DNA of 64,000 nucleotides, taken from the IMG/VR virus record IMGVR_UViG_3300007511_000019. One strand, written 5' to 3'. Below the pieces are notes generated by a model. The model did no database searches. It saw nothing but the letters and a program-made list of their open reading frames with translations, and was not told the origin of the DNA. Source of the DNA: a virus. A program made the position numbers and the translations under genes. The stretch's first letter is position 1. Every line of letters begins with the position of its first letter. This document shows positions 18,730 through 36,094 of this stretch, piece by piece.

Positions 18730-20509
18730 ATGCCCAATATCTTGCTGCCTGAACTCAGCACTGACGCCGAAGAGATGTCTATGCTCGGATTCCCGATCGG
18801 GAATTTGGAGAAGGTATCATCACCCCTAACAGGGGGTTTGTGGCCAGAACTTCTTTCGTATCTTCCCGTTCGGGAAAATCGCCTCCATGGGGAAATTCAC
18901 GAAAAGAGGGGTGAAGACGCGAAAGGCATTCCAGACCGAAAGTACTATGGCGACCTATCTAGAGTTTCTCCGCAGTTACTGGACTTCGTTATCCAACGGC
19001 ATCTTGCCGAGAGAGCTGGCCCTCACTTTGATTTCCGATTCGGAGACCCCAAAGGGCTCTTCTCCTGGGCAACCAGAAAACCGATGCCCGGCATTGGCGG
19101 ACGAACCGCCCTATTCCAGCAGCCCATGCACTCCTACAAGTACAAAGATTGGGAGGGCACAATTCCTAGCGGACGCTATGGGGCTGGACGGGTTAAGAAA
19201 CAAGAGGATGGCAAACTTCTCATTACCAAAGCCAGTCCGGAATCTATCCACTTCACCATGGCCCACAAGAAGCACCCGCAACGCTTCGTGATGATCAAAC
19301 CGAAGGGCTGGAAAGATAAAGACTGGTTGCTTATCAACAAGACCCCGACTGAGCAATTGCCGTACGAGAAAGTACGGTACAAAAAGATTCCAGCGGAGCA
19401 GGTCGACAAGTACATCGGCCAAATGCAAAAAGGCGATACTCTGGAGGCAAAGGTTGACGGGGCCTCCTCGCTGATTAAACTAATGAAAGAGGGCGTCGAG
19501 GTGATGTCCTACCGTACGTCCAAGGAAACGGGCCGACCGATACTTCACACAGAAAGATTGCTTCATGGTCTCCCCGCTTACAACATCCCAGACGACCTGG
19601 TTGGCACGGTACTTAAAGGCGAACTCTACGGAGTGCGACCTGGAGGATCCGGAGATGGTGATGGCTCCGCTGACAAGGGAGACCCTCTACGCGGCCATGT
19701 TGCTGATGAACCTCAGCTGGCGGAAGGGAGCTTTGAACCTGACGGAGGGCGAGAAAGAGATACTCGAGTTTCAGAGAGAGCAGACCAGGAGGATGTTCCC
19801 GGAACTGTTAGGCCCCAAGACGACGGACTCGGAGAATATCTTCAAGAGGCTCTTTCCGCCGGTACCGGTAGACCAACTCAGCGAGAGCGAGTACTCCGCC
19901 CTCAAGAACTTGGAGGACTGCTCAACTCCTCCGTCGCCAAATCAATCCAAGACCAGCGAGAGCGACAAGTAAAACTCAGAAATGCCGTTTACGATATCCA
20001 ACAGCTAGGCAACAAACCAATCGACTGGCATGTGACTCCCCGGCTCGAGCGTAGGGATATGATTCGAAAAGTTCTTGAGCACCTACCGCCCGAGACGTTT
20101 CACATCTCAGAAGCCGCAGAGACGCCCGAAGCCGCCCAGAGACTCTGGCAACAAATACAGTCTGGTGAGCACCCGATTACTCGAGAGGGTGTAGTCATGC
20201 ATCCGCTACACGGTCCCCCCACGAAAGGAAAAATTTTAGAAGACGTAGACGTGTATTATCGCCAAGCATTTCCGGGCAAAGGTAAACACGAAGGATCGGG
20301 TGCTGGCGGCTTCGAATACTCACTCACACCTGACGGGCCTATAATTGGTAAGGTAGGAACAGGTTTCACGGACGAGTTACGCAGGTCCCTTTTCGAGAAC
20401 GATCAAGACTATGCCGGAAGGATTGCACGAATCCAATCGCAAGAACAGCTTCCTAGCGGAGCTTATCGAGCACCGAGCTTTCTGGCTTTTCACGAGGATC
20501 AACCTTATG
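18730..20509 (+). CDS. LigD-type 3'-phosphoesterase domain fused to an ATP-dependent polynucleotide ligase (no in-frame stop, so the 3' end is uncertain; the tracker ORF runs to 21927)
   Basis: PE domain: GPHFDFRFGDPKGLFSWATRKPMPG...DWEGTIPSGRYGAGRV matches the LigD phosphoesterase signature. Ligase motifs: I is KVDGAS, III is LKGELYG, IIIa is AVYDI, IV is EGVVMH, plus an OB fold (GKVGTGFTDE...RAPSFLAFHED). A low-complexity insert of about 110 aa lies between motifs III and IIIa. Confidence 0.6.
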
Positions 20510-21046
20510 CAACAACGAAACAGTCTAGGCAGGTTTCTGCAAGGACACAAATCCAGAACGACTCACGGACAAAGTGGAACGAAAACATACAAGGTGTGGG
20601 CGGGGATGAAACGCCGCTGCCTGGACCCAAAACGGCACAATTACAAACACTACGGAGGACGAGGCATAAAGATATGTGCAAGGTGGCGGGACTCCTTCGA
20701 GAACTTTCTGGAAGACATGGGAACGTGCCCAGACGGTTATTCGCTGGAGAGGGAGAACAACGACAAAGACTACTGTCCCACGAATTGCACTTGGATACCT
20801 CTCGAGAAACAGGCAGCAAACACTCGGAGCAACGTGTGCTTGACTTTTCGCGGCGAAACCAAGCATCTGACACAATGGGCGAGAGAGTCGGGAATCAGGC
20901 AGCAGACATTGACCAGGCGTCTTCAGCGAGGTTGGTCCGTGCAGCGTGCACTAACCGAGAAGCCAGTAGTAGGCAAAAATCAATTCTCGTCCAGCCAGAC
21001 CTCGGACTCACGTCTGAAAAACTCGCTGAACTCGGGATCGGAATAG
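20507..21046 (+). mobile_element. free-standing HNH/AP2-like homing-endonuclease gene with a C-terminal helix-turn-helix (+1 frame relative to the ligase ORF)
   Basis: YKVWAGMKRRCLDPKRHNYKHYGGRGIKICARWRDSFENFLEDMG...GYSLERENNDKDYCPTNCTWIPLEKQAAN is typical of phage HNH homing endonucleases, and LTQWARESGIRQQTLTRRLQRGWSVQRAL is an HTH tail. The ATG at 20507 coincides with the expected C-terminus of the ligase OB domain. Confidence 0.6.
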
Positions 21047-21049
21047 ATC

Positions 21050-21927
21050 CCGACGAGCACACAGCCCTGGAAAAAGAAGCCTCACTTGCTAGACTTCTGA
21101 CACTACCTGGCGTCAAGCACCTACTTCGCTGGCAGTCAAAGCTTGGTCGGAAGGCTAACGACTACTTGTGGAACAAACTGCTAACCGCAAATCGCCGAAC
21201 CGCGTTGGGCACCGCAGGCGTCGTAGGCGGTGCCGGTTACGGCGGCTACCGGATGGGCCAAGGCGACTGGCAAACTCCAGGCGACATTCTACACGACCCG
21301 ATCATCCAAAAGCCGCTGGAATGGTCTACAGTTATCCCGGAGAAATATAACATCCCATTGTGGACAGCAGCAGGTATTGCTGGTGGCCGTAGTGTGGGCC
21401 GTCACGCGGCCCAAGCCGCCGTAGGCAGTGCCAACGCGTTGCGGCGGCTAGTTACGATGCAGCCCTTATCGCAAGCGTTGTCTGGTCAAATCGGTAGTAC
21501 CCTTGGTGTTGCTGGGCCTATCTTAGGCGGTGCCAAAGGCGGCGTCGGAACCTACTACACTCACCGGGCAGTAGAGAAAGCCAGGGAAGCTGCTGAGCAG
21601 CCAACAGTACCTGAAGTCAAGCACAGCACAGATTCGCACTACCTGCGAGCCTTCTCCCAAGTAAACCCTGCACACCTTTACCGAGGCGACCAGTCTGCTC
21701 TGCGTAACGCTAGCAACTACATCAACGCCTTGTTAATACAGGGTCGGCAAAACGTCGCCAAAGCCTATAATACTGATAGCCTCAACCTGGCCTTGGCTCC
21801 GATGGGGCAACGTTGGCAACGAGCCTTGGCCAGTCTTGAGGGTTACGATCCCATCATGTCCAATCCCCTTGATCGGGTGTTGCACATGATGCCAGCAACC
21901 CCGCAGCTGAGTCGTCCGTACGTATGA
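21050..21927 (+). CDS. Gly/Ala-rich putative membrane/virion protein encoded by the 3' part of the 18730-21927 ORF (start undefined)
   Basis: Segments such as TAGVVGGAGYGG, AAGIAGGRSVG and GVAGPILGGAKGG resemble the downstream gene 21953-22792. There is no ATG near the 5' end, so an alternative start or continuation of an upstream exon is possible. Confidence 0.3.
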
Positions 21928-25116: not shown

Positions 25117-25894
25117 CCAACCTACCTTCTACGACGCTGTACAACACGTCACTGCTAAGGCTTTGCAACGTAAAGCTCTAGCTGGAGCAGGTACAGCGGC
25201 ACTAGCTGGTCTCGGTACTGGTGCAGGTCTACGAGGTATCCTCGGCCTGTTGGAAATGAGCAGGCAAGGTGCCCAGCCGCCCCAGGCTCAAGCCCCTACC
25301 GGTCAGATCGAGGTCCCGGTGGACGACGAGAAGATCGCTGCCTTGGCGGATTTCCTCAAAGGCGACTATGCCAAATCGACTTCTGGTGTGCCTTGGGCCA
25401 TTCCTGCCGCTGTTGGTGCCGGTGCTGCCGGAGCGTACGGTGGTTGGAAAGGTATCGACGCACTGCTCGAGCAAAGACGAAAAGGCGAACTAGAGGCTGA
25501 GCTTGAAAAAGCCAAGATGGACTACGAAGCTGCCTTGTCTGGCGACACCAAGTTAGCGGAAGACCTGGACGAACTCTACGACACAGTAGAGAAACAAGCT
25601 GTCTCCGCGTCAGACGCAGCAGGAACGGCTACAGGACTCTACGGAGTCTACGGCGGTACTTCAGCTTTGTTGGCCGCCATTATGGCTTACCAATACGGTA
25701 AGAAGCGACAACGCCGGTCCTTGCTTGAAGCGGCACAAGAGAAACGCCGCCGACAACGCTTTGCACGACAACCTGTGCCGATCCAAGTACGGCCAGTGCC
25801 TAAGCAGCATGAGCAGGACCCGCTGCAGGCAAGTAAGTCCCCGTTCCAGGCCGCACCTAGCTTGGACGAACAAGAAGATCAACTGGATAAGTAA
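25058..25894 (+). CDS. hypothetical Ala/Gly-rich membrane-associated protein with a charged C-terminus (start uncertain; the tracker start is 24986)
   Basis: An RBS (AAGGAA) precedes the ATG at 25058. It is TAATG-coupled to the RNAP gene at 25894. Confidence 0.35.
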   Translation: MTNLALVLKASRQSSEKSANQPTFYDAVQHVTAKALQRKALAGAGTAALAGLGTGAGLRGILGLLEMSRQGAQPPQAQAPTGQIEVPVDDEKIAALADFLKGDYAKSTSGVPWAIPAAVGAGAAGAYGGWKGIDALLEQRRKGELEAELEKAKMDYEAALSGDTKLAEDLDELYDTVEKQAVSASDAAGTATGLYGVYGGTSALLAAIMAYQYGKKRQRRSLLEAAQEKRRRQRFARQPVPIQVRPVPKQHEQDPLQASKSPFQAAPSLDEQEDQLDK

Positions 25895-28800
25895 TGCCAA
25901 ACATTCTGTCACCGCCCTCCGGCGTGCTAAGCGGGACCAAACCTGCTCTGCCGCAACCGGTACGTCCTCTGCAAAAAGAGGAACCGGAAAAGCGAGAGTT
26001 CGGTGACGCTTTGGCCACGCGGCGGCTTATCTACAACAACGTGCTGGCGTCGACTCAAACACTTGAGCCGATCTCTAACCAACGCCACACGCTACAACTG
26101 CGTGATGTTAAATACGCTGACGATCCCAAGTTCTCGTACAAGCAGCAAAAGGAAGCCATCCTCGGCGGTAAGAGTCTCAACCGTCGACTGCAAGGCACCT
26201 GGGAGCTGTCGGATAACGAAACTGGCGAAGTGCTTGACAGCAGGCCCGGCGTAGTTGCTCGTGTACCGCACCTGACGGATCGCGGTACGTTTATCCACAA
26301 CGGTAACGAGTACACCCTGTCCAACCAGATGCGGTTGCGGCCAGGCGTGTTTACCCGTGTCAAAGACAATGGAGAAATTGAAGCCCACGCAAACCTATTG
26401 CCGGGTAAAGGCGTCAGCCACCGGTACTTCCTAGACCCCGAGAAGGGTATTTTCCACATGCGGATGGGGCAGGCGAAAATACCGCTGATGCCTCTTCTCA
26501 AGTCGCTCGGAGCAACAGACAAACAATTGCAGGAAGCATGGGGCAACGAACTGTGGCAAGCTAACGCTCAAAAGGACAACCCAGGAACCCTATCGAAGCT
26601 GTACCAAAAACTGGTACGTAAGATTGACCCTGATGCCGACGAGCCAGCTAAACGCCTAGCCGTTGCCGAAGTCATGGAGAAAATGGAACTGGACCCCGAG
26701 GTTACACAACGAACCTTAGGTAACAGTTTCAACAGGATGGGGTTGGATGCGATTCTAGCCACCACCAATAAATTGCTCGCAGTATCCCGTGGAGAACAGG
26801 AGGTCGATGACCGTGATCATCTCGCTTATCAAAATGTCCTGGGCCCAGAAGATTTGTTCGCGGAACGTATCGCAAAGGATTATGGCGGACTCCGCCGACA
26901 ACTTTTGCATAGATCTAGCTTTAAGGGAGACTTGTCAGCCGCACAGTCCGGTATGCTAAGTCGCCAGTTAGAAGCCGCGTTACTCCATTCTGGATTAGGG
27001 CAAAGCCTTGAAGAAATCAACCCAGCAGACATCTTCGACAAACAATCAAGAATCTCACGTCTCGGTGAGGGCGGCATCCCGTCCATCGACGCCGTGCCAG
27101 ACGAAGCTAGGGCGGTTCAGCCGAGCCACTTGGCTTTCATGGACCCAGTACGCACGCCGGAATCATTTAAGGTCGGTGTGGATGTGCATATTGCCAACAC
27201 GGCTCGTAAAGGATCTGATGGCCGAATTTACTCACCGTTCGTTGATCCTCGTAGCGGAAAAGAGGTGTGGAAGTCGCCCCAGGACCTTGCAGATCTCACA
27301 GTCGCTTTTCCCGGCGAAATGCGTAGGGAAACTAAGCGGGTTGGTGCCATGCAAGGCGGCAAACTCAAGTTTGTCCCAAAACAGTCTGTGGACCTGGTTG
27401 TGCCCACTTTCGAAAACGCTTTCTCGCCGCTAGGTAACATGGTTCCCATGAAGTCAGCGGTCAAGGCCCAGCGTATGGCTATGGCTAGCCGTATGCTCAC
27501 ACAGGCCTTGCCGCTCGAGAACGCAGAGAGTCCGCTTGTACAGACCGGCATCTCTGGCGAAGAGGATACAAGTTACGAGCAGCGATATGGTCGTAAGATG
27601 GGTGCCGTCTTCGCCGACAAGCCAGGACGAGTAGTTTCAATAAGCGACCAAGGGATTAAGGTCAAGTACGACGACGGAACTACAGAAGAGAAGCAGCTCT
27701 ATAACAACTTCCCGTACAACCGCAAAAGCGTAACCGGTGACACTCGTATTGTGATCCGACGCAAGAATGGCGAACTGTGGACTGGATCAATCGATAAGTA
27801 CCACTGGGAAGATAGCGACCAAGTGCAGTCGGTGGACCCAGACTCCAAGCAGTCTGCCTGGAAACGCGTCACAGGTTACATTACGCACTGCAACGACAAA
27901 CAGCTGTTGCGGATAACTACTAAATCCGGGAGATCGGTCGTGGTCACGGAAGACCACAGCCTTATTACGCTGGACAAACACGGAGAACTGGTACCGGTCT
28001 ACCCTAAAGACTGCGAGATCGGGCTAACCCGCCTGCCTGTAGCCATGTTGCAGGGTCATCGATCTCGGCGACATGGCCAGGAGATTAGCAAAGACCCGAG
28101 CGGCATTCTGTGGGGGCTGTACGTAGCCGAGGGGCACTGTCCGCCTACCCAACCAGGGCTAGTTAACATTGCAGTAGAGCCAGACGACCGTGCAGAACAG
28201 GTGTTGGAAGTGGCTCGTCAGTGCGGTTATGAGGCGTACCGCAATGGCGGTAACGTATGCTTTACTGACCACGCCTTCGCCGCCAAGGCGACTGAGCACT
28301 TTGGCCACCTGTCGCACAACAAGCGAATTCCCGCCTGGGTGCTTGGTACTCCCGTCTGGTTTCGGGAAAGTTTTGTTCAAGGCTATATGGCTGGCGACGG
28401 GTGCTTGTGGGAGGACTCAAACGGGTCGCTACAGCTGCAGGCCGTTACGGTTTCTAGAGAGCTTCGCGACGGATTTGTCGAGTTGCTGTTAAGCCTAGGC
28501 ATTATGACGACGCTTTTCGATGCACCTAGAAAGCACCTCAACGACAACTGGCGTGACGCGTACGGTTGCCGCATAATCAGTAGCCACGTAGGGCGACTTC
28601 GTAAGTGGTTCTACTACGCAGACCGTGAGCGACAACTCCACGAGCTGCTAAAGCCTACGTATCGAGCCGCAAGCTTTGACCTGGTCCCGGTAGCCGCCGA
28701 GGCCCGTAAACTTCTGTACAAGGGTTATATCGGGACGGTTCCTAGCTATGTCTATAAGACCGCCAACCAGGGAGCAGTTGCTAAGCACCGGTTGAAAGAA

Positions 28801-31551
28801 AATACAGGCGTGTTCGGCGACTGGGCACGCTCTGATGTACTGTGGGACCCTATCGAAGAAATTATCCCTGTTGCTTACGAGGAACGAGTATATGACCTTT
28901 GCGTCCAGCACTCCGAGGCATTTTGCGTCAACGGCGGACTGCTCGTGCACAACACCTACATTCACAATACTCCGACAGTCAAGCCAGGTGACACCTTTGG
29001 TGTGGGGCAGGCCTTGGCTAAATCCAACTTTACCGATGCTGGTGGCACTACCGCTCTCGGTAAGAACGCTCGCGTTGCGTACATCCCATTCCGAGGGCAG
29101 AACTTCGAGGACGCTCTTGTGATCTCCGAGTCTTTCGCCAAGCGAATGAGTTCGGAGCACATGTATCAACACGGCGTGGACTTCGCAGACGACAAGAAAA
29201 CCAAACGACGCGACTATGTCTCACTCTTCCCATCCAAGTATGACAAACAAACTTTAGAGAGCATCGACGAAGACGGCGTCATCAAGCAGGGCACTATCGT
29301 CAGTCACGGCGACCCCCTTATTCTGTCGGCACGGCAGAAGGACGTTGCTCAGCATAAAGTCCATCGTCGCAAGGCTCCTGGCTTTACCGACCAATCCGAG
29401 ATCTGGAAGCACCATGCCCCTGGCGTGGTTACTGATGTATTCAAGGGCAAGAAGGGCACCACGGTCCTAGTCAAATCGCTCTCAGCTATGCAAAAGGGCG
29501 ACAAGCTATCAGGCCGCTACGGTGACAAAGGTGTTATCTCGGCGATCGTGCCGGATAACGAGATGCCCCACTCAAAGGACGGACAGGCTTTCGAAGTTTT
29601 GCTTAACCCTCTTGGTATTATCTCCCGTACAAACCCGGCCCAAATGGTTGAGGCCGCACTGGGAAAGATTGCTGCCAAGACAGGGAAACCTTACAAGGTG
29701 GTTGATTTTGAAGACATACAAGATTTGACGGACTTTGCGATCCAGGAACTCAAGAAGAACCAAATGGAGGACCTGGAGGACATAACCGACCCGTCGAACG
29801 AGAGAAAGATTCCCGGCGTCTTCACCGGCAACCGCTTCTTCATGAAACTCCACCATACGGCGGAGGGAAAGGGGCAGGGTCGTGGTACAGGAGGTTATAC
29901 GATGGAAGGTACTCCCGCGAAAGGCGGTGAGACCGGTTCCAAGCGAATTTCACTTCTCGATAACAACGCACTCCTCTCGCACGGTGCCACTGAGGTTCTT
30001 CGAGACGCAGGAGCAATTCGAGGACAACGTAATGAGGAGTTCTGGCTCCCATTCATGCGTGGTGTTACTCCCCCAAAGCCCAAGGTACCCATTGTCTATC
30101 AAAAGTTCGTGAACGAGCTTAAGGCATCAGGTATTAACGTGGTGGAGGACGGAACACAAACACACATTATGGCCCTCACCGACAAAGACGTCGGTGAGCT
30201 GGCTGGACAGAGATACCTCAAGAGCGGCGACACGGTTCAATTTGAAAAAGGATTGAAACCGATCACCGGCGGTCTGTTCGACCCCGCACTAACCGGCGGA
30301 CACAACGGCAATCGCTGGTCGGCAATCAAACTCGCAGAACCTATGCCGAACCCGGTAATGGAAGAACCCATTCGCCGCGTCTTGGGACTTACACAAAAGC
30401 GATTCGAGGCCGTCCTATCCGGGCAGGAAGAGTTGCAAGGACACCGTGGTCCTGCAGCCTTTACCAAGGCCCTAGGTAAGATGGACCTGGATAAAGAGAT
30501 TGCTTACGCACAAGCGGAATTCAAATCCGGACGTAAGGCCTCTCGAGATATGGCCATACGTAAACTGGGTTACCTCAAGTCCGCCAAGAAACTAGGCATA
30601 CACCCTAAAGACTGGATGCTGACCAAGGCTCCTGTATTGCCCCCGATGTTTCGTCCGGTGTCGGTGATGTCCGACAACCGCCTTCCTTTGGTATCGGATG
30701 CTAATTTCCTTTACAAGGAATTACTGGAAGCTAACGACAACCTAACAGAGATGTCAAAAGAGGTGGACGATGTCGCCGACGAACGTCTTGCGGTCTACAA
30801 CGCTTTCAAAGCAGTCACAGGACTTGGAGATCCAATACACCCAAAACTGCAGGAGAAACGCGTCAAGGGGATTCTTAAGCACGTATTTGGTTCTAGCCCT
30901 AAGCTGGGTGCTGTGCAGCGTAGGCTTGTATCCAGTACTGTGGATCTTGTTGGCCGTGCAGTTATTACTCCTAACCCTGACCTGGACATGGACCATGTTG
31001 GGCTTCCAGAGAATAGAGCCTGGGACATCTACAAGAACTTCATCGTACGAAGACTCAAGCGGCGGGGTATGCCGCTGGTCGAAGCGGCCAAGCAGGTCGA
31101 GAACCGTTCAGAAGTAGCTAAACAAGAGTTGGTCAAAGAGATGGGCGAACGGCCCGTGGTGATCAACCGAGCCCCGGTTTTGCACCGTTTCGGCATCATG
31201 GCTTTCTACCCCAGACTTACCAAGAGCGACACTCTGGAGGTCTCCCCGTTGATCGTGAAAGGCTTCGGAGCTGACTTCGATGGGGATGCTATGCAATACC
31301 ACGTACCGGTCTCCGACGAGGCCAAAGACGAGGCCGTGGACCGTATGTTGCCAAGTCGCAACCTCTTAAGCCCGGCTGACTTCAAGTCGCCTATCCACGT
31401 ACCGAGTCAAGAATACACCGGTGGATTGTACGCTGCGTCGTCCACCAAATCTAAGCGGCGGGTGCGTACCTTCCGCAATACCAAGGATATGCTCGCAGCC
31501 TATCGGCGTGGTGAGCTAGACATCAACGATGAAGTGGAGGTGATGGAGTAG
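25894..31551 (+). CDS. rpoB: phage multisubunit RNA polymerase: beta subunit fused to the N-terminal (rpoC1/gamma-like) part of beta', interrupted by an intein
   Basis: Beta blocks include LTDRGTFIHNGNEY...RPGVFT, GKNARVAYIPFRGQNFEDALVISE, GDKLSGRYGDKGVIS...LLNPLGIISRTNP and GNRFFMKLHHTAEGKGQGRGTGGYT. Beta' blocks follow in the same ORF: PITGGLFDP, VLPPMFRPV, NRAPVLHRFGIMAFYP and GADFDGDAMQYHVP. The ORF ends about 90 aa after the DFDGD motif. Confidence 0.85.
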   Translation: MPNILSPPSGVLSGTKPALPQPVRPLQKEEPEKREFGDALATRRLIYNNVLASTQTLEPISNQRHTLQLRDVKYADDPKFSYKQQKEAILGGKSLNRRLQGTWELSDNETGEVLDSRPGVVARVPHLTDRGTFIHNGNEYTLSNQMRLRPGVFTRVKDNGEIEAHANLLPGKGVSHRYFLDPEKGIFHMRMGQAKIPLMPLLKSLGATDKQLQEAWGNELWQANAQKDNPGTLSKLYQKLVRKIDPDADEPAKRLAVAEVMEKMELDPEVTQRTLGNSFNRMGLDAILATTNKLLAVSRGEQEVDDRDHLAYQNVLGPEDLFAERIAKDYGGLRRQLLHRSSFKGDLSAAQSGMLSRQLEAALLHSGLGQSLEEINPADIFDKQSRISRLGEGGIPSIDAVPDEARAVQPSHLAFMDPVRTPESFKVGVDVHIANTARKGSDGRIYSPFVDPRSGKEVWKSPQDLADLTVAFPGEMRRETKRVGAMQGGKLKFVPKQSVDLVVPTFENAFSPLGNMVPMKSAVKAQRMAMASRMLTQALPLENAESPLVQTGISGEEDTSYEQRYGRKMGAVFADKPGRVVSISDQGIKVKYDDGTTEEKQLYNNFPYNRKSVTGDTRIVIRRKNGELWTGSIDKYHWEDSDQVQSVDPDSKQSAWKRVTGYITHCNDKQLLRITTKSGRSVVVTEDHSLITLDKHGELVPVYPKDCEIGLTRLPVAMLQGHRSRRHGQEISKDPSGILWGLYVAEGHCPPTQPGLVNIAVEPDDRAEQVLEVARQCGYEAYRNGGNVCFTDHAFAAKATEHFGHLSHNKRIPAWVLGTPVWFRESFVQGYMAGDGCLWEDSNGSLQLQAVTVSRELRDGFVELLLSLGIMTTLFDAPRKHLNDNWRDAYGCRIISSHVGRLRKWFYYADRERQLHELLKPTYRAASFDLVPVAAEARKLLYKGYIGTVPSYVYKTANQGAVAKHRLKENTGVFGDWARSDVLWDPIEEIIPVAYEERVYDLCVQHSEAFCVNGGLLVHNTYIHNTPTVKPGDTFGVGQALAKSNFTDAGGTTALGKNARVAYIPFRGQNFEDALVISESFAKRMSSEHMYQHGVDFADDKKTKRRDYVSLFPSKYDKQTLESIDEDGVIKQGTIVSHGDPLILSARQKDVAQHKVHRRKAPGFTDQSEIWKHHAPGVVTDVFKGKKGTTVLVKSLSAMQKGDKLSGRYGDKGVISAIVPDNEMPHSKDGQAFEVLLNPLGIISRTNPAQMVEAALGKIAAKTGKPYKVVDFEDIQDLTDFAIQELKKNQMEDLEDITDPSNERKIPGVFTGNRFFMKLHHTAEGKGQGRGTGGYTMEGTPAKGGETGSKRISLLDNNALLSHGATEVLRDAGAIRGQRNEEFWLPFMRGVTPPKPKVPIVYQKFVNELKASGINVVEDGTQTHIMALTDKDVGELAGQRYLKSGDTVQFEKGLKPITGGLFDPALTGGHNGNRWSAIKLAEPMPNPVMEEPIRRVLGLTQKRFEAVLSGQEELQGHRGPAAFTKALGKMDLDKEIAYAQAEFKSGRKASRDMAIRKLGYLKSAKKLGIHPKDWMLTKAPVLPPMFRPVSVMSDNRLPLVSDANFLYKELLEANDNLTEMSKEVDDVADERLAVYNAFKAVTGLGDPIHPKLQEKRVKGILKHVFGSSPKLGAVQRRLVSSTVDLVGRAVITPNPDLDMDHVGLPENRAWDIYKNFIVRRLKRRGMPLVEAAKQVENRSEVAKQELVKEMGERPVVINRAPVLHRFGIMAFYPRLTKSDTLEVSPLIVKGFGADFDGDAMQYHVPVSDEAKDEAVDRMLPSRNLLSPADFKSPIHVPSQEYTGGLYAASSTKSKRRVRTFRNTKDMLAAYRRGELDINDEVEVME
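27727..28953 (+). mobile_element. intein (409 aa) with a LAGLIDADG homing-endonuclease domain in RNAP beta
   Basis: The flanks (...YNRK and TYIHNTPTV) match the beta region ...YTRSNQN / TCINQMPCV. Hint block A is SVTGDTRIV (Ser1). The C-terminus is ...LLVHN with Thr at +1. LAGLIDADG-like motifs are ILWGLYVAEGH and FVQGYMAGDGCL. Confidence 0.7.
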
Positions 31552-31612
31552 CCTAGTCTGTGCTAAACTGCTGGTTACTACACCCTTTACGTCCAATGGA
31601 AGGCTATTCCTC

Positions 31613-32296
31613 ATGACCATGTTTTCTGGAAAACTCCAAGAACTCGTGAAGATCGCCCGAGCCCAAAACGGTAAACAGGCCTTTGTCGACCCCGCAATGG
31701 CTGCGGGTGGTGGAATGCCCCCAGGTGGCGATCCCGCCGCGATGGGTATGGATCCTGCCGCAATGGGCGGTGCTCCCCCTGCAGATCCTGCTGCGATGGG
31801 TGGAGCCCCTCCGGCTGATCCTGCTGCTGGTGGCGGAGGTATTTCTCGACCAGAAGTCGAGGCAATGATTCAACAAGCCGTAATGGCTGGTGGCGGGGGC
31901 GGTGCTGGAGGTCCTGGCGGAGAAGCCGGACTCAAACCTAAAATCGATGTCAACGTCGAGATCATGCAGATGAAGAACCTGCTGGCCAAGGTTGTTGACA
32001 CTCTTGGTATTCCGGTACCTGCTGAAGAAATGACAGCTACGACTGACAAACTCACCGCGATGGCCCAGGGTCAAGACCCAATGGCTGGCGGCGGAGGTGC
32101 TCCCGGCGGAGACCCAGCTGCGGCTGGTGGTGCAGGCGGAAGTGCGATTGCTCCGATTGGCCCGATGGCTGGGGCGTCTCCCGAGCTTGCTAAGTCCGGC
32201 TGCGATATGGGCACTGCGGCAGACCCGATTGATATGGTAGGTCTGCGAGACAAGGCGTCAGCTTTGGCTGCTGTGCTGCGGCGGAAAGATTCGTAA
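31613..32296 (+). CDS. Gly/Pro/Ala-rich protein with DPAAMGG repeats
   Basis: GDPAAMGMDPAAMGGAPPADPAAMGGAPPADPAAGGGG is repeated. The same motif type occurs in the scaffold-like protein at 46182. Confidence 0.4.
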   Translation: MTMFSGKLQELVKIARAQNGKQAFVDPAMAAGGGMPPGGDPAAMGMDPAAMGGAPPADPAAMGGAPPADPAAGGGGISRPEVEAMIQQAVMAGGGGGAGGPGGEAGLKPKIDVNVEIMQMKNLLAKVVDTLGIPVPAEEMTATTDKLTAMAQGQDPMAGGGGAPGGDPAAAGGAGGSAIAPIGPMAGASPELAKSGCDMGTAADPIDMVGLRDKASALAAVLRRKDS

Positions 32297-32571
32297 TGAA
32301 AGTCGTCAGTACTGATGGCCAGCTTAGATCGATTACTCAGGAAAACATTTCCCAAGTAATCGTTTACGATCTGTTCGATAACCCTATAATGGTTGTGGTG
32401 GAAGTTCAGCCGGGTGTTCACACTTGCGTGGCTGCCAACGACAAGGACTTCAATCGCATCATGGCCGGACTGGGTATTGACAAGGTTGTGATAGATACTC
32501 CGCTGATCCCTGACAGGGAGATTCCTGCGGAGGCCAAACTTATTTCTGGCCCCTTTGGGAGCGTACAATGA
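32296..32571 (+). CDS. hypothetical protein
   Basis: The 91-aa ORF is TAATG-coupled upstream and ATGA-coupled downstream. Confidence 0.35.
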   Translation: MKVVSTDGQLRSITQENISQVIVYDLFDNPIMVVVEVQPGVHTCVAANDKDFNRIMAGLGIDKVVIDTPLIPDREIPAEAKLISGPFGSVQ

Positions 32572-32792
32572 CACGACGCGGAGCAAAAGACGAACGAGCC
32601 AAACGCATTGCCGCCTCCGAGCGGCATTTTGGCATGACGCCTGCCGACCACGACGCCGCTTTGTTACAAGTAGCCGAGGAGCTGGCGGCGTTCGACAGAA
32701 AATCTGATAAGCTAGATGCGTTCCTACATATGCTCGAAGACAAAGTGGACGGAATAAGCGATGGCTCTGCAGGGCGGATTCGGGGTTCCTGA
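32568..32792 (+). CDS. hypothetical protein
   Basis: The ORF is 74 aa, with an ATGA overlap. Confidence 0.3.
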   Translation: MTRRGAKDERAKRIAASERHFGMTPADHDAALLQVAEELAAFDRKSDKLDAFLHMLEDKVDGISDGSAGRIRGS

Positions 32793-33045
32793 GCAATTGC
32801 GGGCTCGAATGGCCCGACCAGCTACCCCCACACTCAAAGTTCTGTCTGTCTGGGTACAGCACGGAGTAGAACAGCAGTTACTGCCCATAGCATCTGGCGA
32901 TGACGACGCCCAGCTGCGTGGACTGCTTGCAAATTGGGAGCAGCAACTGGACTACGGGGAAATGGTCGCTTCAAACATGCGGTATCTAGGGCGGCACCGG
33001 ATTGTAACAGTTCCTTTCATCGGACGGCAAAATGGCAAAGCGTAA
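32761..33045 (+). CDS. hypothetical protein
   Basis: The 94-aa ORF overlaps both neighbouring genes. Confidence 0.25.
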   Translation: MALQGGFGVPEQLRARMARPATPTLKVLSVWVQHGVEQQLLPIASGDDDAQLRGLLANWEQQLDYGEMVASNMRYLGRHRIVTVPFIGRQNGKA

Positions 33046-36000
33046 GGCTACTGCTGGCCAGATCCTCATCAACGAAGTGTTGCCTGAAGACATGCGGGAC
33101 TACAACCGCACGCTCGACAAGAAGGGTCTGTCCAAACTGCTTACCGAGGTAGCCCAGAAGCACCCGGACGACTATCGAGATATCTCCCACCGACTGGGCA
33201 AGATCGGACGCGAAGCCGCCTTTACATCAGGCGGCAATTCTTTTGGCCTAGCCCACATGAAGCGTGCTTTGGTCGCCCGCAAAATGCAGTCTGGCCTGAA
33301 AACCCGTATCAACGCATTGCTGGACAACGACAGCCTTGACGATGACGCAAGAGACGCAGCCATTATCAAACTGGTTGGTAAGGCCATGCCGCAGCTGCAG
33401 GACGCCATTCTTGAAGAGAGCGACGCCGAAGGTAACCCGCTCGCCCAACAACTCAAAGGTGCCGGTCGCGGTAACAAGATGAACCTCTCTTCGTTACGAG
33501 GTAGCGACGGGCTGTATCAAGATCACCGTGACAACATCATCCCGATTCCTGTACTCAAGAGTTACTCAGAAGGGCTCTCGCCGCTAGAGTATTGGGGCGG
33601 GACTTACGGTGCCCGGCAAGGTGTTATGGCGGTTAAGTTCGCTACACAGGACGCTGGCTTTCTATGCCTTGCGGAAGGCACGGAAGTGCGGATGGCTGAC
33701 TGGAGCACCAAGCCTATCGAAGAGATCCAAGTAGGTGACACGGTACTGGGAGCTAACAAGTACGGAACGACCTTTCCCGTCAAAGTGACCGCCACTTTTG
33801 ACAACGGTGTGCGGCAGCTAACAAAGTTCCGCTTCCGGTACGGCAAGGCCCGCAACCGTTTTATTGAGGTGACAGCCACCGACAAACACAAAGCCCTGGC
33901 CGAGCATCTTCGTCGCCGACGCAAACGCCCTGATCCTAGGTTACATATTGAGATCAGCCAAGACGTTATGCCAATGGGTACGTTCGAACGACGGACAGTT
34001 TCGCGGCACGCTCTAGTCCCACCTCAAGGCTACTCCTGCCCGCAAACCGGTCCGAGAGACGAGTACTGCTGGCTGCTAGGCCTCCTGACTGCCGAAGGCG
34101 GTTTAACTACGAATCACGTAGGACTGTCTTGTGGAGATCCGGAGCTGCTAAAAGAGGCTCGACGGTTGACAAAGCCAATGGGTTTCGAGATACGCCAAAA
34201 GAAAAATGCCCAGTACGAATACAGCTTTTATGACACCCAGCCCTTGCCCGCAAAAGGTAAGCCTGGCGGAGGCATTGCCACCGGTTCTTTCCGAAACCGG
34301 CTCAAGGCCAAGCTGGCTGAACACGGGCTGCTAGGTAAACTGGCCCAGGACAAGGAATTGCCCGAACAAATTTGGGCGTGGCCCAACTCACATGTCTGCG
34401 GTTTTCTTCGTTGGCTCTTCGCCGGTGACGGGGGTGTCAGTCCGTCGAACAACGCTACGCTGCCTGTAGTCACGTTGGGCATGACAGCGGAGCCGGTTGT
34501 GCGGGGCGTCGAACGCTTGTTGGCCGATCGTTTTGGCATCTACGGTCAGATTAGTATGGACAAGGCGGAGAACTGCCCTAAAGCCAACCATGACTGCCAT
34601 GTTCTTGCCATTTCCGATCCCCAGTCGGTGGAACGCTTCGCACAACACATAGGTTTTGTTGCTGGTAGTAAGCAGGCCCGTCTAATGACGCTGCTGGCCG
34701 AGGCCGACCCTTGCGAGAGGCACAGCCGCTTTCTCTTCCATTACCTCGACTCCGAGGACGTTGGCGAAGGTCCTACTTACGATATCGAGGTCGACAACGA
34801 GGACCACCTATTTGTACTGGCCAACGGGGCAATTGTCTCCAATTCCAAACAACTCAATCAAATCGCACACCGCTCAGTCGTGATCGACGAAGACAGCGAT
34901 GGCGAGCCCGACACCCTCATTGGTCTGCCTGTCGATACTGACGACATGGACAGCGAGGGTTCGTTGTTGGCGGCTCCTGCGGGCAAGTATAAACGAAACA
35001 CAGTGCTCACTCCTAAGATCATCCGCGAATTGAAGCAAGCGGGAATCAAACGGCTCTTGGTGCGAAGCCCAGCAATCGGTGGTACGCCAGACGGCGGTGT
35101 GTACGGCAGGGACGTCGGTATTAGAGAATTCGGTCGACTTCCTACACGAGGCGAAAATGTTGGACTCACAGCTGCTCAAGCCCTATCTGAACCGCTGTCT
35201 CAGGCTCAACTCTCGGCGAAGCATACAGGCGGGGTGGCTGGCGAATCCCAAGCAGTCTCTGGATTTGATTACATCAACCAACTCGTACAAGTTCCCAAAA
35301 CCTTCAAAGGCGGAGCAGCCCATTCAACGCTTGACGGTATCGTACAAGCTGTCGAGCCCGCTCCTGCCGGTGGTACCTATGTCTCCATCAACGGAGAACG
35401 ACATTACATCGCAGGAGGGTTCGAGCCAAAGGTTAAGAAAGGCGATCACGTCGAAGCTGGAGACGTTATTTCTGACGGCACTCCGAACCCTTCGTTGATT
35501 ACCAAACACAAAGGCGTGGGCGAAGGCCGACGTTACTACATCAAGTCGTTTGCTGACGCCATGAGTTCTGCTGGCATCAAATCCCACCGCCGCAACGTCG
35601 AACTACTAGCGAGAGGGCTTATCAACCACGTTCGCCTTACAGACGAGATCGGGGACTTTGCACCTGACGACGTGGTGCCCTACTCCATGATGGCCGCTCG
35701 GTACATTCCCCGAGAAGGGTTCAAAACAATGGATCCCAATCGTGCAACAGGTAAGTATCTTGAGAGGCCCTACCTGCACTATTCGATCGGCACCAAGATC
35801 CGCCCATCGATGATGAAAGACTTCAAAGACTTTGGCGTGAAAAGCGTTGATGTACATGACGACGAACCGCCTTTTGAACCAGAAATGATCCGAGGCATGG
35901 CTAACCTGCAACACGACCCAGACTGGATGACCCGTATGTTCGGTTCTGGTCTGAAAGGTAGCCTGCTTCGCGGTGTACATCGAGGCGGCACTTCGTCGGA

Positions 36001-36094
36001 GACCGGAACCAGCTTTGTGGCCGGTCGGGCGAAGGCCGTTGACTTTGGTCGTACAGGTATTATCCAAACTCCGAAGGAGCCTCCCAAACCATGA
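33032..36094 (+). CDS. rpoC: RNA polymerase beta' C-terminal (rpoC2-like) subunit, interrupted by an intein
   Basis: [12 protein letters not shown]...KKGLSKLL matches beta' at AILNEILP...KKAISKML. Further matches are [25 protein letters not shown] to [41 protein letters not shown] to TRRLVDVAQDLVVTEDD, and [23 protein letters not shown] to [23 protein letters not shown]. Confidence 0.85.
   Translation: [1020 protein letters not shown]
33665..34843 (+). mobile_element. intein (393 aa) with a LAGLIDADG endonuclease domain in RNAP beta'
   Basis: It begins [10 protein letters not shown] (Cys1, Hint block A) directly after the GFL of the GYL|TRRL-equivalent site, and ends ...NGAIVSN with Ser at +1. 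LAGLIDADG-like motifs are [14 protein letters not shown] and [12 protein letters not shown]. There is no penultimate His. Confidence 0.65.

Follow-up and report, generated by a model that had tools for sequence, protein, structure and literature searches.

A probable class 1 intein with a LAGLIDADG homing endonuclease in the bridge helix of a phage RNA polymerase, and its relatives at other sites of the same gene

A long in-frame insert lies in an open reading frame (ORF) of the viral DNA analyzed here, a stretch of 64,000 nucleotides from IMG/VR record IMGVR_UViG_3300007511_000019 (hereafter, the window); the ORF codes for the C-terminal half of the beta' subunit of a phage multisubunit RNA polymerase (RNAP). 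Judged from its splicing residues, profile matches, and modeled fold, this insert is very probably a bona fide class 1 intein with an embedded two-motif LAGLIDADG homing endonuclease, lying in the bridge helix at the equivalent of Escherichia coli RpoC L796/T797 (a slash marks a splice junction throughout), and both splicing and homing are predicted for it. Taken singly, it would be an ordinary member of a known intein type; that the novelty lies in a family-level insertion hotspot in the same gene is plausible but unconfirmed. The features on which the argument rests are the following (aa, amino acids).

33032 to 36094, plus strand: precursor gene, C-terminal half of a phage multisubunit RNAP beta' (ORF translation, 1020 aa including the intein)
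33032 to 33664, plus strand: N-extein, 211 aa, whose alignment to E. coli RpoC ends at L796
33665 to 34843, plus strand: predicted class 1 intein, 393 aa, Cys1 to Asn393, delimited by the stop-free in-frame translation (CLAEGTEV...LANGAIVSN), profiles, and empty-site orthologues
33665 to 33703, plus strand: splicing block A, CLAEGTEVRMADW, with Cys1 as predicted first nucleophile
33878 to 33889, plus strand: splicing block B, T72-D-K-H75 (TxxH motif), with the conserved Thr and His
34037 to 34714, plus strand: LAGLIDADG homing endonuclease domain, about aa 125 to 350 (approximate limits, from predicted secondary structure)
34070 to 34102, plus strand: LAGLIDADG motif 1, WLLGLLTAEGG, acid Glu144 (Asp or Glu in 145/162 full-length members and in 33/35 at this site)
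34403 to 34435, plus strand: LAGLIDADG motif 2, FLRWLFAGDGG, acid Asp255 (Asp in 158/162 full-length members and in 35/35 at this site)
34775 to 34843, plus strand: splicing blocks F and G, TYDIEVDNEDHLFVLANGAIVSN, with D373, H381, penultimate Ser392, and terminal Asn393
34844 to 36091, plus strand: C-extein, 416 aa, starting at Ser+1, which aligns with E. coli T797
35162 to 35245, plus strand: trigger loop within the C-extein, GLTAAQALSEPLSQAQLSAKHTGGVAGE, located by alignment to beta' chains

A sequence-only reading of the window had taken the host gene for RNAP beta' and the insertion site for the equivalent of the conserved SGYL/TRRL, and both assignments held. Pfam RNA_pol_Rpb1_5 (PF04998) and the NCBIfam rpoC models match the ORF, although the rpoC equivalog cut-offs are not reached because its product is a diverged half-subunit. 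Solved bacterial beta' chains match the extein at E values of about 1e-30, in two blocks separated by the insert, and in alignments with these chains and with E. coli RpoC the bridge helix and trigger loop are colinear with those of cellular beta' (in the trigger loop, SEPLSQAQLSAKHTGG of the C-extein falls opposite RpoC GEPGTQLTMRTFHIGG). The N-extein carries the first part of the bridge helix at its end (...LEYWGGTYGARQGVMAVKFATQDAGFL), with ...ATQDAGFL before Cys1, and the C-extein resumes the helix as SKQLNQIAHR, the residues after Asn393 reading SKQLNQIAHRSVVIDED. The AGFL of the flank lies opposite SGYL in the solved chains, and GFL/S lies opposite G794-Y795-L796/T797 of E. coli RpoC, whose Y795, L796, and T797 are listed among the bridge-helix residues in a mutational map (PMC3077646). 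On these alignments the predicted intein interrupts the bridge helix of beta' at the L796/T797 equivalent and, since it breaks this helix, the precursor cannot be an active subunit.

Removal of the insert gives a predicted mature beta' half of 627 aa. More than 1100 homologues of this conceptually spliced extein were found and most of the best 120 are 620 to 660 aa long; longer homologues without an internal insert owe their extra length to C-terminal fusions and not to inteins. The closest empty-site orthologue (P0001, 625 aa, 77% identical) reads uninterrupted through the site as ATQDAGFLSKQLNQ, and, together with about 110 further homologues of 620 to 660 aa, it carries ...DAGFLSKQLNQ... 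without a break. In the gene of this orthologue (L001), the DNA at the empty site reads ...GGCTTCTTG before and TCCAAGCAG... after the junction (in a second rendering, ...ACACAGGACGCCGGCTTCTTG and TCCAAGCAGCTCAATCAGATC...), and the corresponding DNA of the window reads ...GGCTTTCTA, the intein, and TCCAAACAA.... Fourteen contigs, assembled independently from several samples and by several pipelines, carry the identical 1020-aa precursor, and an assembly artefact is thereby excluded. When the gene was compared with 50,697 phage records by megablast, no match was obtained, and the relatives that tblastn found were all distant (Vibrio phages D181, D148, and D69 and Salmonella phage Arash, about 30% identity over the C-terminal third); no cultured relative came out of these searches.

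The limits of the insert had been proposed from the letters alone, beginning with CLAEGTEV directly after GFL and ending in VSN before a Ser+1, and the translation bears them out to the base. Profile searches place the Hint domain boundaries at the same residues, Cys1 and Asn393/Ser+1. The match to Pfam Hom_end_hint begins at Cys212 of the ORF (model positions 1 to 31 on residues 212 to 242), and NCBIfam TIGR01443, the intein C-terminal splicing region, is covered from position 2 to 24 of its 24 positions on residues 582 to 605, ending exactly at Ser+1 (Ser605), with an E value of 4e-5 and a score of 23.6 against a cut-off of 15.6. Block A aligns with the N terminus of PI-SceI, CFAKGTNVLMADGS. 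The residues to which splicing chemistry would be assigned are conserved among 236 family members (C1 in 234, T72 in 226, H75 in 232, D373 in 236, H381 in 224, S392 in 215, and N393 in 236). Cys1, the TxxH motif, the Asp and His of block F, and Asn393/Ser+1 are thus all found in an in-frame insert that is absent from orthologues, as in class 1 inteins. Assignment to class 3 does not agree with the sequence, in which Cys1 is present and the F:4 place holds the family-invariant Asp373, not Cys.

Homology modeling, proposed along with the sequence-only reading, gave the same picture. The AlphaFold2 model of the intein has a mean predicted local distance difference test (pLDDT) value of 83.6 and a predicted template modeling (pTM) score of 0.80; its input alignment consisted of excised inteins from ten family members, because in an alignment of whole precursors those from other sites did not stay in register. 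The best match of the model in the PDB by Foldseek is PI-SceI (E value 1e-18, TM score 0.64), followed by TliVMA and PI-PfuI (range over the three, 1e-13 to 1e-18), and on all three structures the beta-strand regions at the two ends of the model superpose as a Hint fold.

The LAGLIDADG-like motifs noticed in the letters are likewise real. Pfam LAGLIDADG_3 matches with an E value of 8e-16 (score 58.4 versus a cut-off of 22.5), and two motifs are present, whose catalytic acids are both kept in this copy, in 33/35 same-site alleles, and in 144/162 full-length relatives. The helical alpha/beta core of the model spans aa 135 to 346, and Foldseek matches to I-DmoI, I-Tsp061I, and the nuclease domains of PI-SceI and PI-PfuI support a pseudo-dimeric alpha-beta-beta-alpha-beta-beta-alpha fold. 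The 226-aa nuclease region is an unbroken ORF, modeled with high confidence except for one loop. A basic stretch, HLRRRRKRPDPR (nucleotides 33905 to 33940), is conserved in the closest allele (P0028) and may contribute to DNA binding. Of the steps predicted for this element, nuclease activity is the least secure; we find it reasonably likely, if well short of assured, that the nuclease is active.

The lack of a penultimate His, which had been pointed out for this insert, is no anomaly. The residue is indeed Ser392, but this is not particular to the window copy, for Ser occupies the position in 215 of 240 parsed related inteins (with His in 10, Lys in 5, and Gly and Ala in 3 each) and in 49 of the 50 alleles found at the same site; the +1 residue is Ser here and in 229/240. 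By this comparison, the Ser-Asn C terminus is the normal state of the family and not a defect. Phage class 1 inteins often lack the penultimate His and have Gly, Lys, or Ser instead, a block-F His is suggested to fill its role, and putting the His back can even slow splicing (Kelley et al. 2016, PMC5050341); for splicing without this residue, PMC4031507 cites the earlier studies of Chen/Benner/Perler (2000) and of Sun et al. (2005). The penultimate His is usual in class 1 inteins but not obligatory, and it is the only one of their usual features that this intein lacks. Its absence is therefore real but adds little novelty, being the family consensus and documented both for phage inteins (PMC5050341) and for Npu DnaE.

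The conserved residues, read with the established mechanism of inteins, suggest the following course. Splicing would start with an N-S acyl shift at Cys1, aided by Thr72 and His75 of block B; the thioester would be attacked by Ser+1 to give a branched intermediate; and Asn393 would cyclize to a succinimide, freeing the intein. As the penultimate residue is Ser, this cyclization is presumably helped by His381 and Asp373 of block F and not by a block-G His. An O-N shift would then restore the peptide bond, leaving the 627-aa subunit with ...DAGFL-SKQLNQ.... Because the catalytic center includes the bridge helix, splicing must come before the assembly of an active polymerase. For homing, the free intein or its nuclease domain would cut an intein-less allele across the empty site during coinfection, and repair from the intein-bearing copy would spread the element.

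The alleles at this site are those that a homing cycle would leave. Eight of the 120 closest extein homologues carry inteins, four of them at this site, and the search for alleles that had been suggested at the outset found 50 in the sampled homologues at this point (after extein position 211), namely, 34 full-length inteins and 16 mini-inteins, the exteins of their hosts being just 27 to 77% identical. One partial copy, on a contig binned in a Nanopelagicales metagenome-assembled genome (MAG) (L011, 3001 to 3909), is a same-site allele without the stretch matching residues 126 to 223 of the window intein, and P0003 holds a 180-aa remnant at a neighboring site (after extein position 203) with a decayed LAGLIDADG motif 1 still visible. 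Both resemble copies caught part way through the loss of the nuclease. Full-length and mini alleles together with the partial copy, scattered over divergent hosts, form the pattern expected from a homing cycle.

Several points weigh against an intein that is still both splicing and mobile. Splicing and DNA cleavage are predictions from sequence and structure for every member of the family. Residue 378 is Asn here, where 186/236 relatives have a second block-F His, a change that could alter the rate of the Asn-cyclization step. A near-identical intein-free allele of this phage was not found among the extein homologues, the closest empty site being the one at 77% identity. Besides, the composition of the intein (GC fraction 0.557; third-codon-position GC, GC3, 0.61) equals that of the extein, which fits a long residence, and the target range or the activity of the nuclease could have been lost despite intact motifs. 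In a rival reading, the intein is splicing competent and its endonuclease inactive; it would then be a passenger, fixed and passed on vertically, that is degenerating toward a mini-intein. The base composition, the 16 mini-inteins among the 50 same-site alleles, the shortened copy, and the 180-aa remnant agree with such a course, as does the Glu of motif 1 where 138/162 full-length relatives have Asp. However, some active LAGLIDADG enzymes, such as I-DmoI, have Glu in this place, and the catalytic acids, the motif glycines, and the nuclease ORF are intact; we regard the passenger as unlikely, though a serious contender.

Other explanations fare worse. The insert might act as a conditional regulatory switch, its splicing tuned by redox, temperature, or infection timing, with the penultimate Ser as part of the tuning. 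Insertion into a catalytic element does make the precursor necessarily inactive, the family is concentrated in the bridge helix and trigger loop, and in one phage intein the choice of penultimate residue was shown to affect how much precursor accumulates (Kelley et al., PMC5050341). However, the sequence holds no hint of a sensor, conserved catalytic sites are the general rule for selfish intein insertion, and about 93% of the 120 closest orthologues are intein free, so the host does not depend on the intein, which makes a switch quite improbable. That the insert is no intein at all, being a lineage-specific insertion domain, a cleaving-only bacterial intein-like (BIL) or Hedgehog-type Hint domain, or the product of a pseudogene or misassembly, could be argued from the absent penultimate His and from whole-protein Pfam scores below the gathering cut-offs (Hom_end_hint, 29.0 versus 32.1; Hint, 17.0 versus 29.7). 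Against this stand the full and conserved set of Cys1, TxxH, block-F Asp and His, Asn, and Ser+1, the TIGR01443 match above its cut-off, the fold that matches PI-SceI from end to end, the exact restoration of a universally conserved helix when the insert is removed, and the identical ORF on 14 independent contigs. BIL domains are found in proteins that vary, and no +1 nucleophile is conserved after them. We consider a non-intein insert extremely improbable and effectively refuted already; a class 1 intein with a homing endonuclease remains the reading we prefer.

An exhaustive phmmer search of representative proteins with the intein gave 1083 matches at E values of 1e-3 or lower, 188 of them at 1e-30 or lower, a number that puts the insert far beyond chance. 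A word-indexed protein search with the intein alone gave just eight, and the exhaustive search was needed to reveal the family. Inteins were parsed with hidden Markov models (HMMs) of the N- and C-terminal splicing blocks from the extein homologues and from the best 150 of the 1083 intein matches, and for every intein parsed from these 150 a position was found on the extein of the same phage beta' half. After removal of mis-parsed cases, 235 inteins in 154 sampled homologues map to at least 14 insertion points on the extein of the window, as follows.

Bridge helix, 7 points: after extein positions 188, 198, 199, 200, 202, 203, and 211
Trigger loop, 6 points: after extein positions 325, 329, 331, 334, 335, and 338
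Further point, 1: after extein position 356

One intein is present in 90 of the 154 intein-bearing homologues, two in 49, three in 13, and four in 2; the sampling is enriched for carriers, and these counts are not prevalences. The nearest neighbor of an intein in another protein lies at the same site in 140/236 cases, against a chance expectation of 16.5%, and the frequent neighbors at other sites suggest occasional site switching. The family includes mini forms of about 134 to 150 aa. We would put at about even the chance that this beta' gene family is the most densely intein-invaded target yet seen, one Ser-Asn/Ser lineage having radiated to at least 14 bridge-helix and trigger-loop points, with up to four copies per polypeptide and one apparent tandem. 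No description of such a multisite family was found in the literature searched. A literature search on inteins in the bridge helix, the trigger loop, or phage multisubunit RNAPs returned nothing relevant, with incomplete coverage and with the archaeal intein sites not placed; the genuine intein that we predict would thus stand at a site for which we found no documentation.

Some relatives deserve separate mention. P0151, P0155, P0127, P0136, P0171, and P0174 carry up to four inteins of the family, some of them four extein residues apart (STKF, SSKH), and in P0174 one intein ending in ...LIVHN abuts Cys1 of the next, an apparent direct tandem at one site. The order in which such multi-intein precursors would splice is not obvious. 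Distant relatives (24 to 33% identity) are found in IMG/VR within the Walker A motif of the phage terminase large subunit (after GGNRxGK and before S/T; L053, 2501 to 3547; L061, 2429 to 3436; and L071), with a Ser-Asn ending in one and His-Asn in two. The precursor of the window itself (P0277) is filed in a 90%-identity cluster under an unrelated 47-aa Paenibacillus hypothetical protein, a clustering artefact.

A pattern scan of IMG/VR found 49 loci, about 40 of them in the beta' C-half gene, on viral contigs of up to about 210 kb. The relatives come from marine and other environmental metagenomes, on viral contigs of 100 to 235 kb; among 185,579 species genomes, the family appears solely on MAG-binned contigs with the same phage gene, which gives no reliable host. 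The window itself carries beta, beta'N, and beta'C together with a virion structural protein. Judged from gene content and contigs, it would fit the multisubunit-RNAP-encoding Caudovirales (mReC phages) of Weinheimer and Aylward (PMC7481178), tailed phages that have both beta and beta' and whose RNAPs branch apart from cellular ones; inteins are not mentioned in that study. PaBG-type jumbo phages, which have a similar GC content, were rejected as a source, since sigma factors and a terminase intein are described for them but no multisubunit RNAP. The polymerase genes occupy 25894 to 36094 (plus strand), with beta and beta'N fused in one 1885-aa ORF (1476 aa when spliced), followed by three or four small ORFs (31613 to 33045) and then by the separate beta' C-half gene, an unusual layout shared by L003, L009, and L010.

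Within the beta part of the fusion (ORF 25894 to 31551) lies a second, unrelated intein of 409 aa (27727 to 28953, plus strand), which has Ser1, the ending LLVHN, and Thr+1 and hence no Cys nucleophile at either splice junction. It matches Pfam Intein_splicing and LAGLIDADG_3, its site is ...FPYNRK/TYIH, and it is absent from the 1474-aa orthologue in L009. This intein is not detected by the HMMs of the beta' intein family, and the pattern scan gave no close IMG/VR relative of it; the same HMMs found no further copy of the beta' intein in the window. Elsewhere in the window (18730 to 21927, plus strand), a 1065-aa ORF combines a LigD-type 3'-phosphoesterase with DNA-ligase OB and adenylation-like regions (Pfam, PHROG). 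It is long for a phage ligase, and no intein was detected in it.

If these predictions are true, the family would be a natural system for the study of intein site switching, interference between neighbors, and splicing-gated maturation of RNA polymerase: a hotspot with multiple occupancy in two mobile catalytic elements makes site switching, co-homing interference, and a possible splicing-dependent control of a viral polymerase approachable. Protein engineering would also gain over 200 inteins, mini forms included, that combine Cys1 and Ser+1 and have no penultimate His, and the consistency of the Ser-Asn/Ser junction makes the family a large natural data set for the debate on Asn cyclization without a block-G His. 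As to annotation, the product of the gene would be a 627-aa beta' half instead of a 1020-aa protein, and the polymerase would work only after splicing.

In its architecture, a Hint domain split by a two-motif LAGLIDADG nuclease, this intein resembles PI-SceI (the VMA1 intein of Saccharomyces cerevisiae), TliVMA, and PI-PfuI. The ends of PI-SceI, CFAKGTNVLMADGS and DHQFLLANQVVVHN, are recognizably similar to its own. However, inteins of the PI-SceI type are only about 16 to 18% identical to it and occupy another host protein and another site, and at the C-terminal junction PI-SceI has His-Asn/Cys whereas this intein has Ser-Asn/Ser. For blocks F and G, the solved structure that matches best in sequence is the Npu DnaE C-intein (...YDIGVE-RDHNFALKNGFIASN), a weak and short match with an E value of 0.17. 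It ends in ...NGFIASN, that is, with Ser-Asn and no penultimate His, as here, and for Ssp DnaE a catalytic model without this His has been published (Sun et al. 2005, as cited in PMC4031507). The Npu and Ssp DnaE inteins differ in being naturally split and nuclease free, in residing in DNA polymerase III alpha, and in having Cys+1. The class 1 inteins of mycobacteriophages (PMC5050341) are likewise phage borne, inserted at active-center sites of essential proteins, and devoid of a penultimate His, but they belong to another phage group and their hosts are terminase, the RDF, helicase, and others, without an RNA polymerase among them.

Core transcription proteins hold few inteins (Novikova et al., PMC4760082). 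Those known in RNAP are the archaeal Mja rPol A', Mja rPol A'', and Nph rPol A'' inteins and the eukaryotic and viral ones of RPB2, RPA2, and RPC2 (Goodwin et al. 2006, PMC1635734). Like the present intein, they belong to one or the other of the two largest subunits and occupy conserved positions close to the active center, and several end in Gly-Asn and not His-Asn, but their hosts are archaeal or eukaryotic polymerases instead of a phage beta'. The positions of the archaeal rPol A' and A'' inteins were not found in the literature searched, by comparing extein fragments with NCBIfam, or by a bridge-helix peptide search, which gave only short fragments, and one or another of them may be allelic with this site. 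For the invasion of one conserved gene at several nearby sites, sometimes by two inteins together, the closest parallels are Prp8, with seven sites (PMC6805012), and haloarchaeal MCM, with four (PMC10643990). The phage beta' differs from both in that at least 14 points in two short catalytic elements are occupied, with up to four inteins per protein and some of them four residues apart, by one recognizable family.

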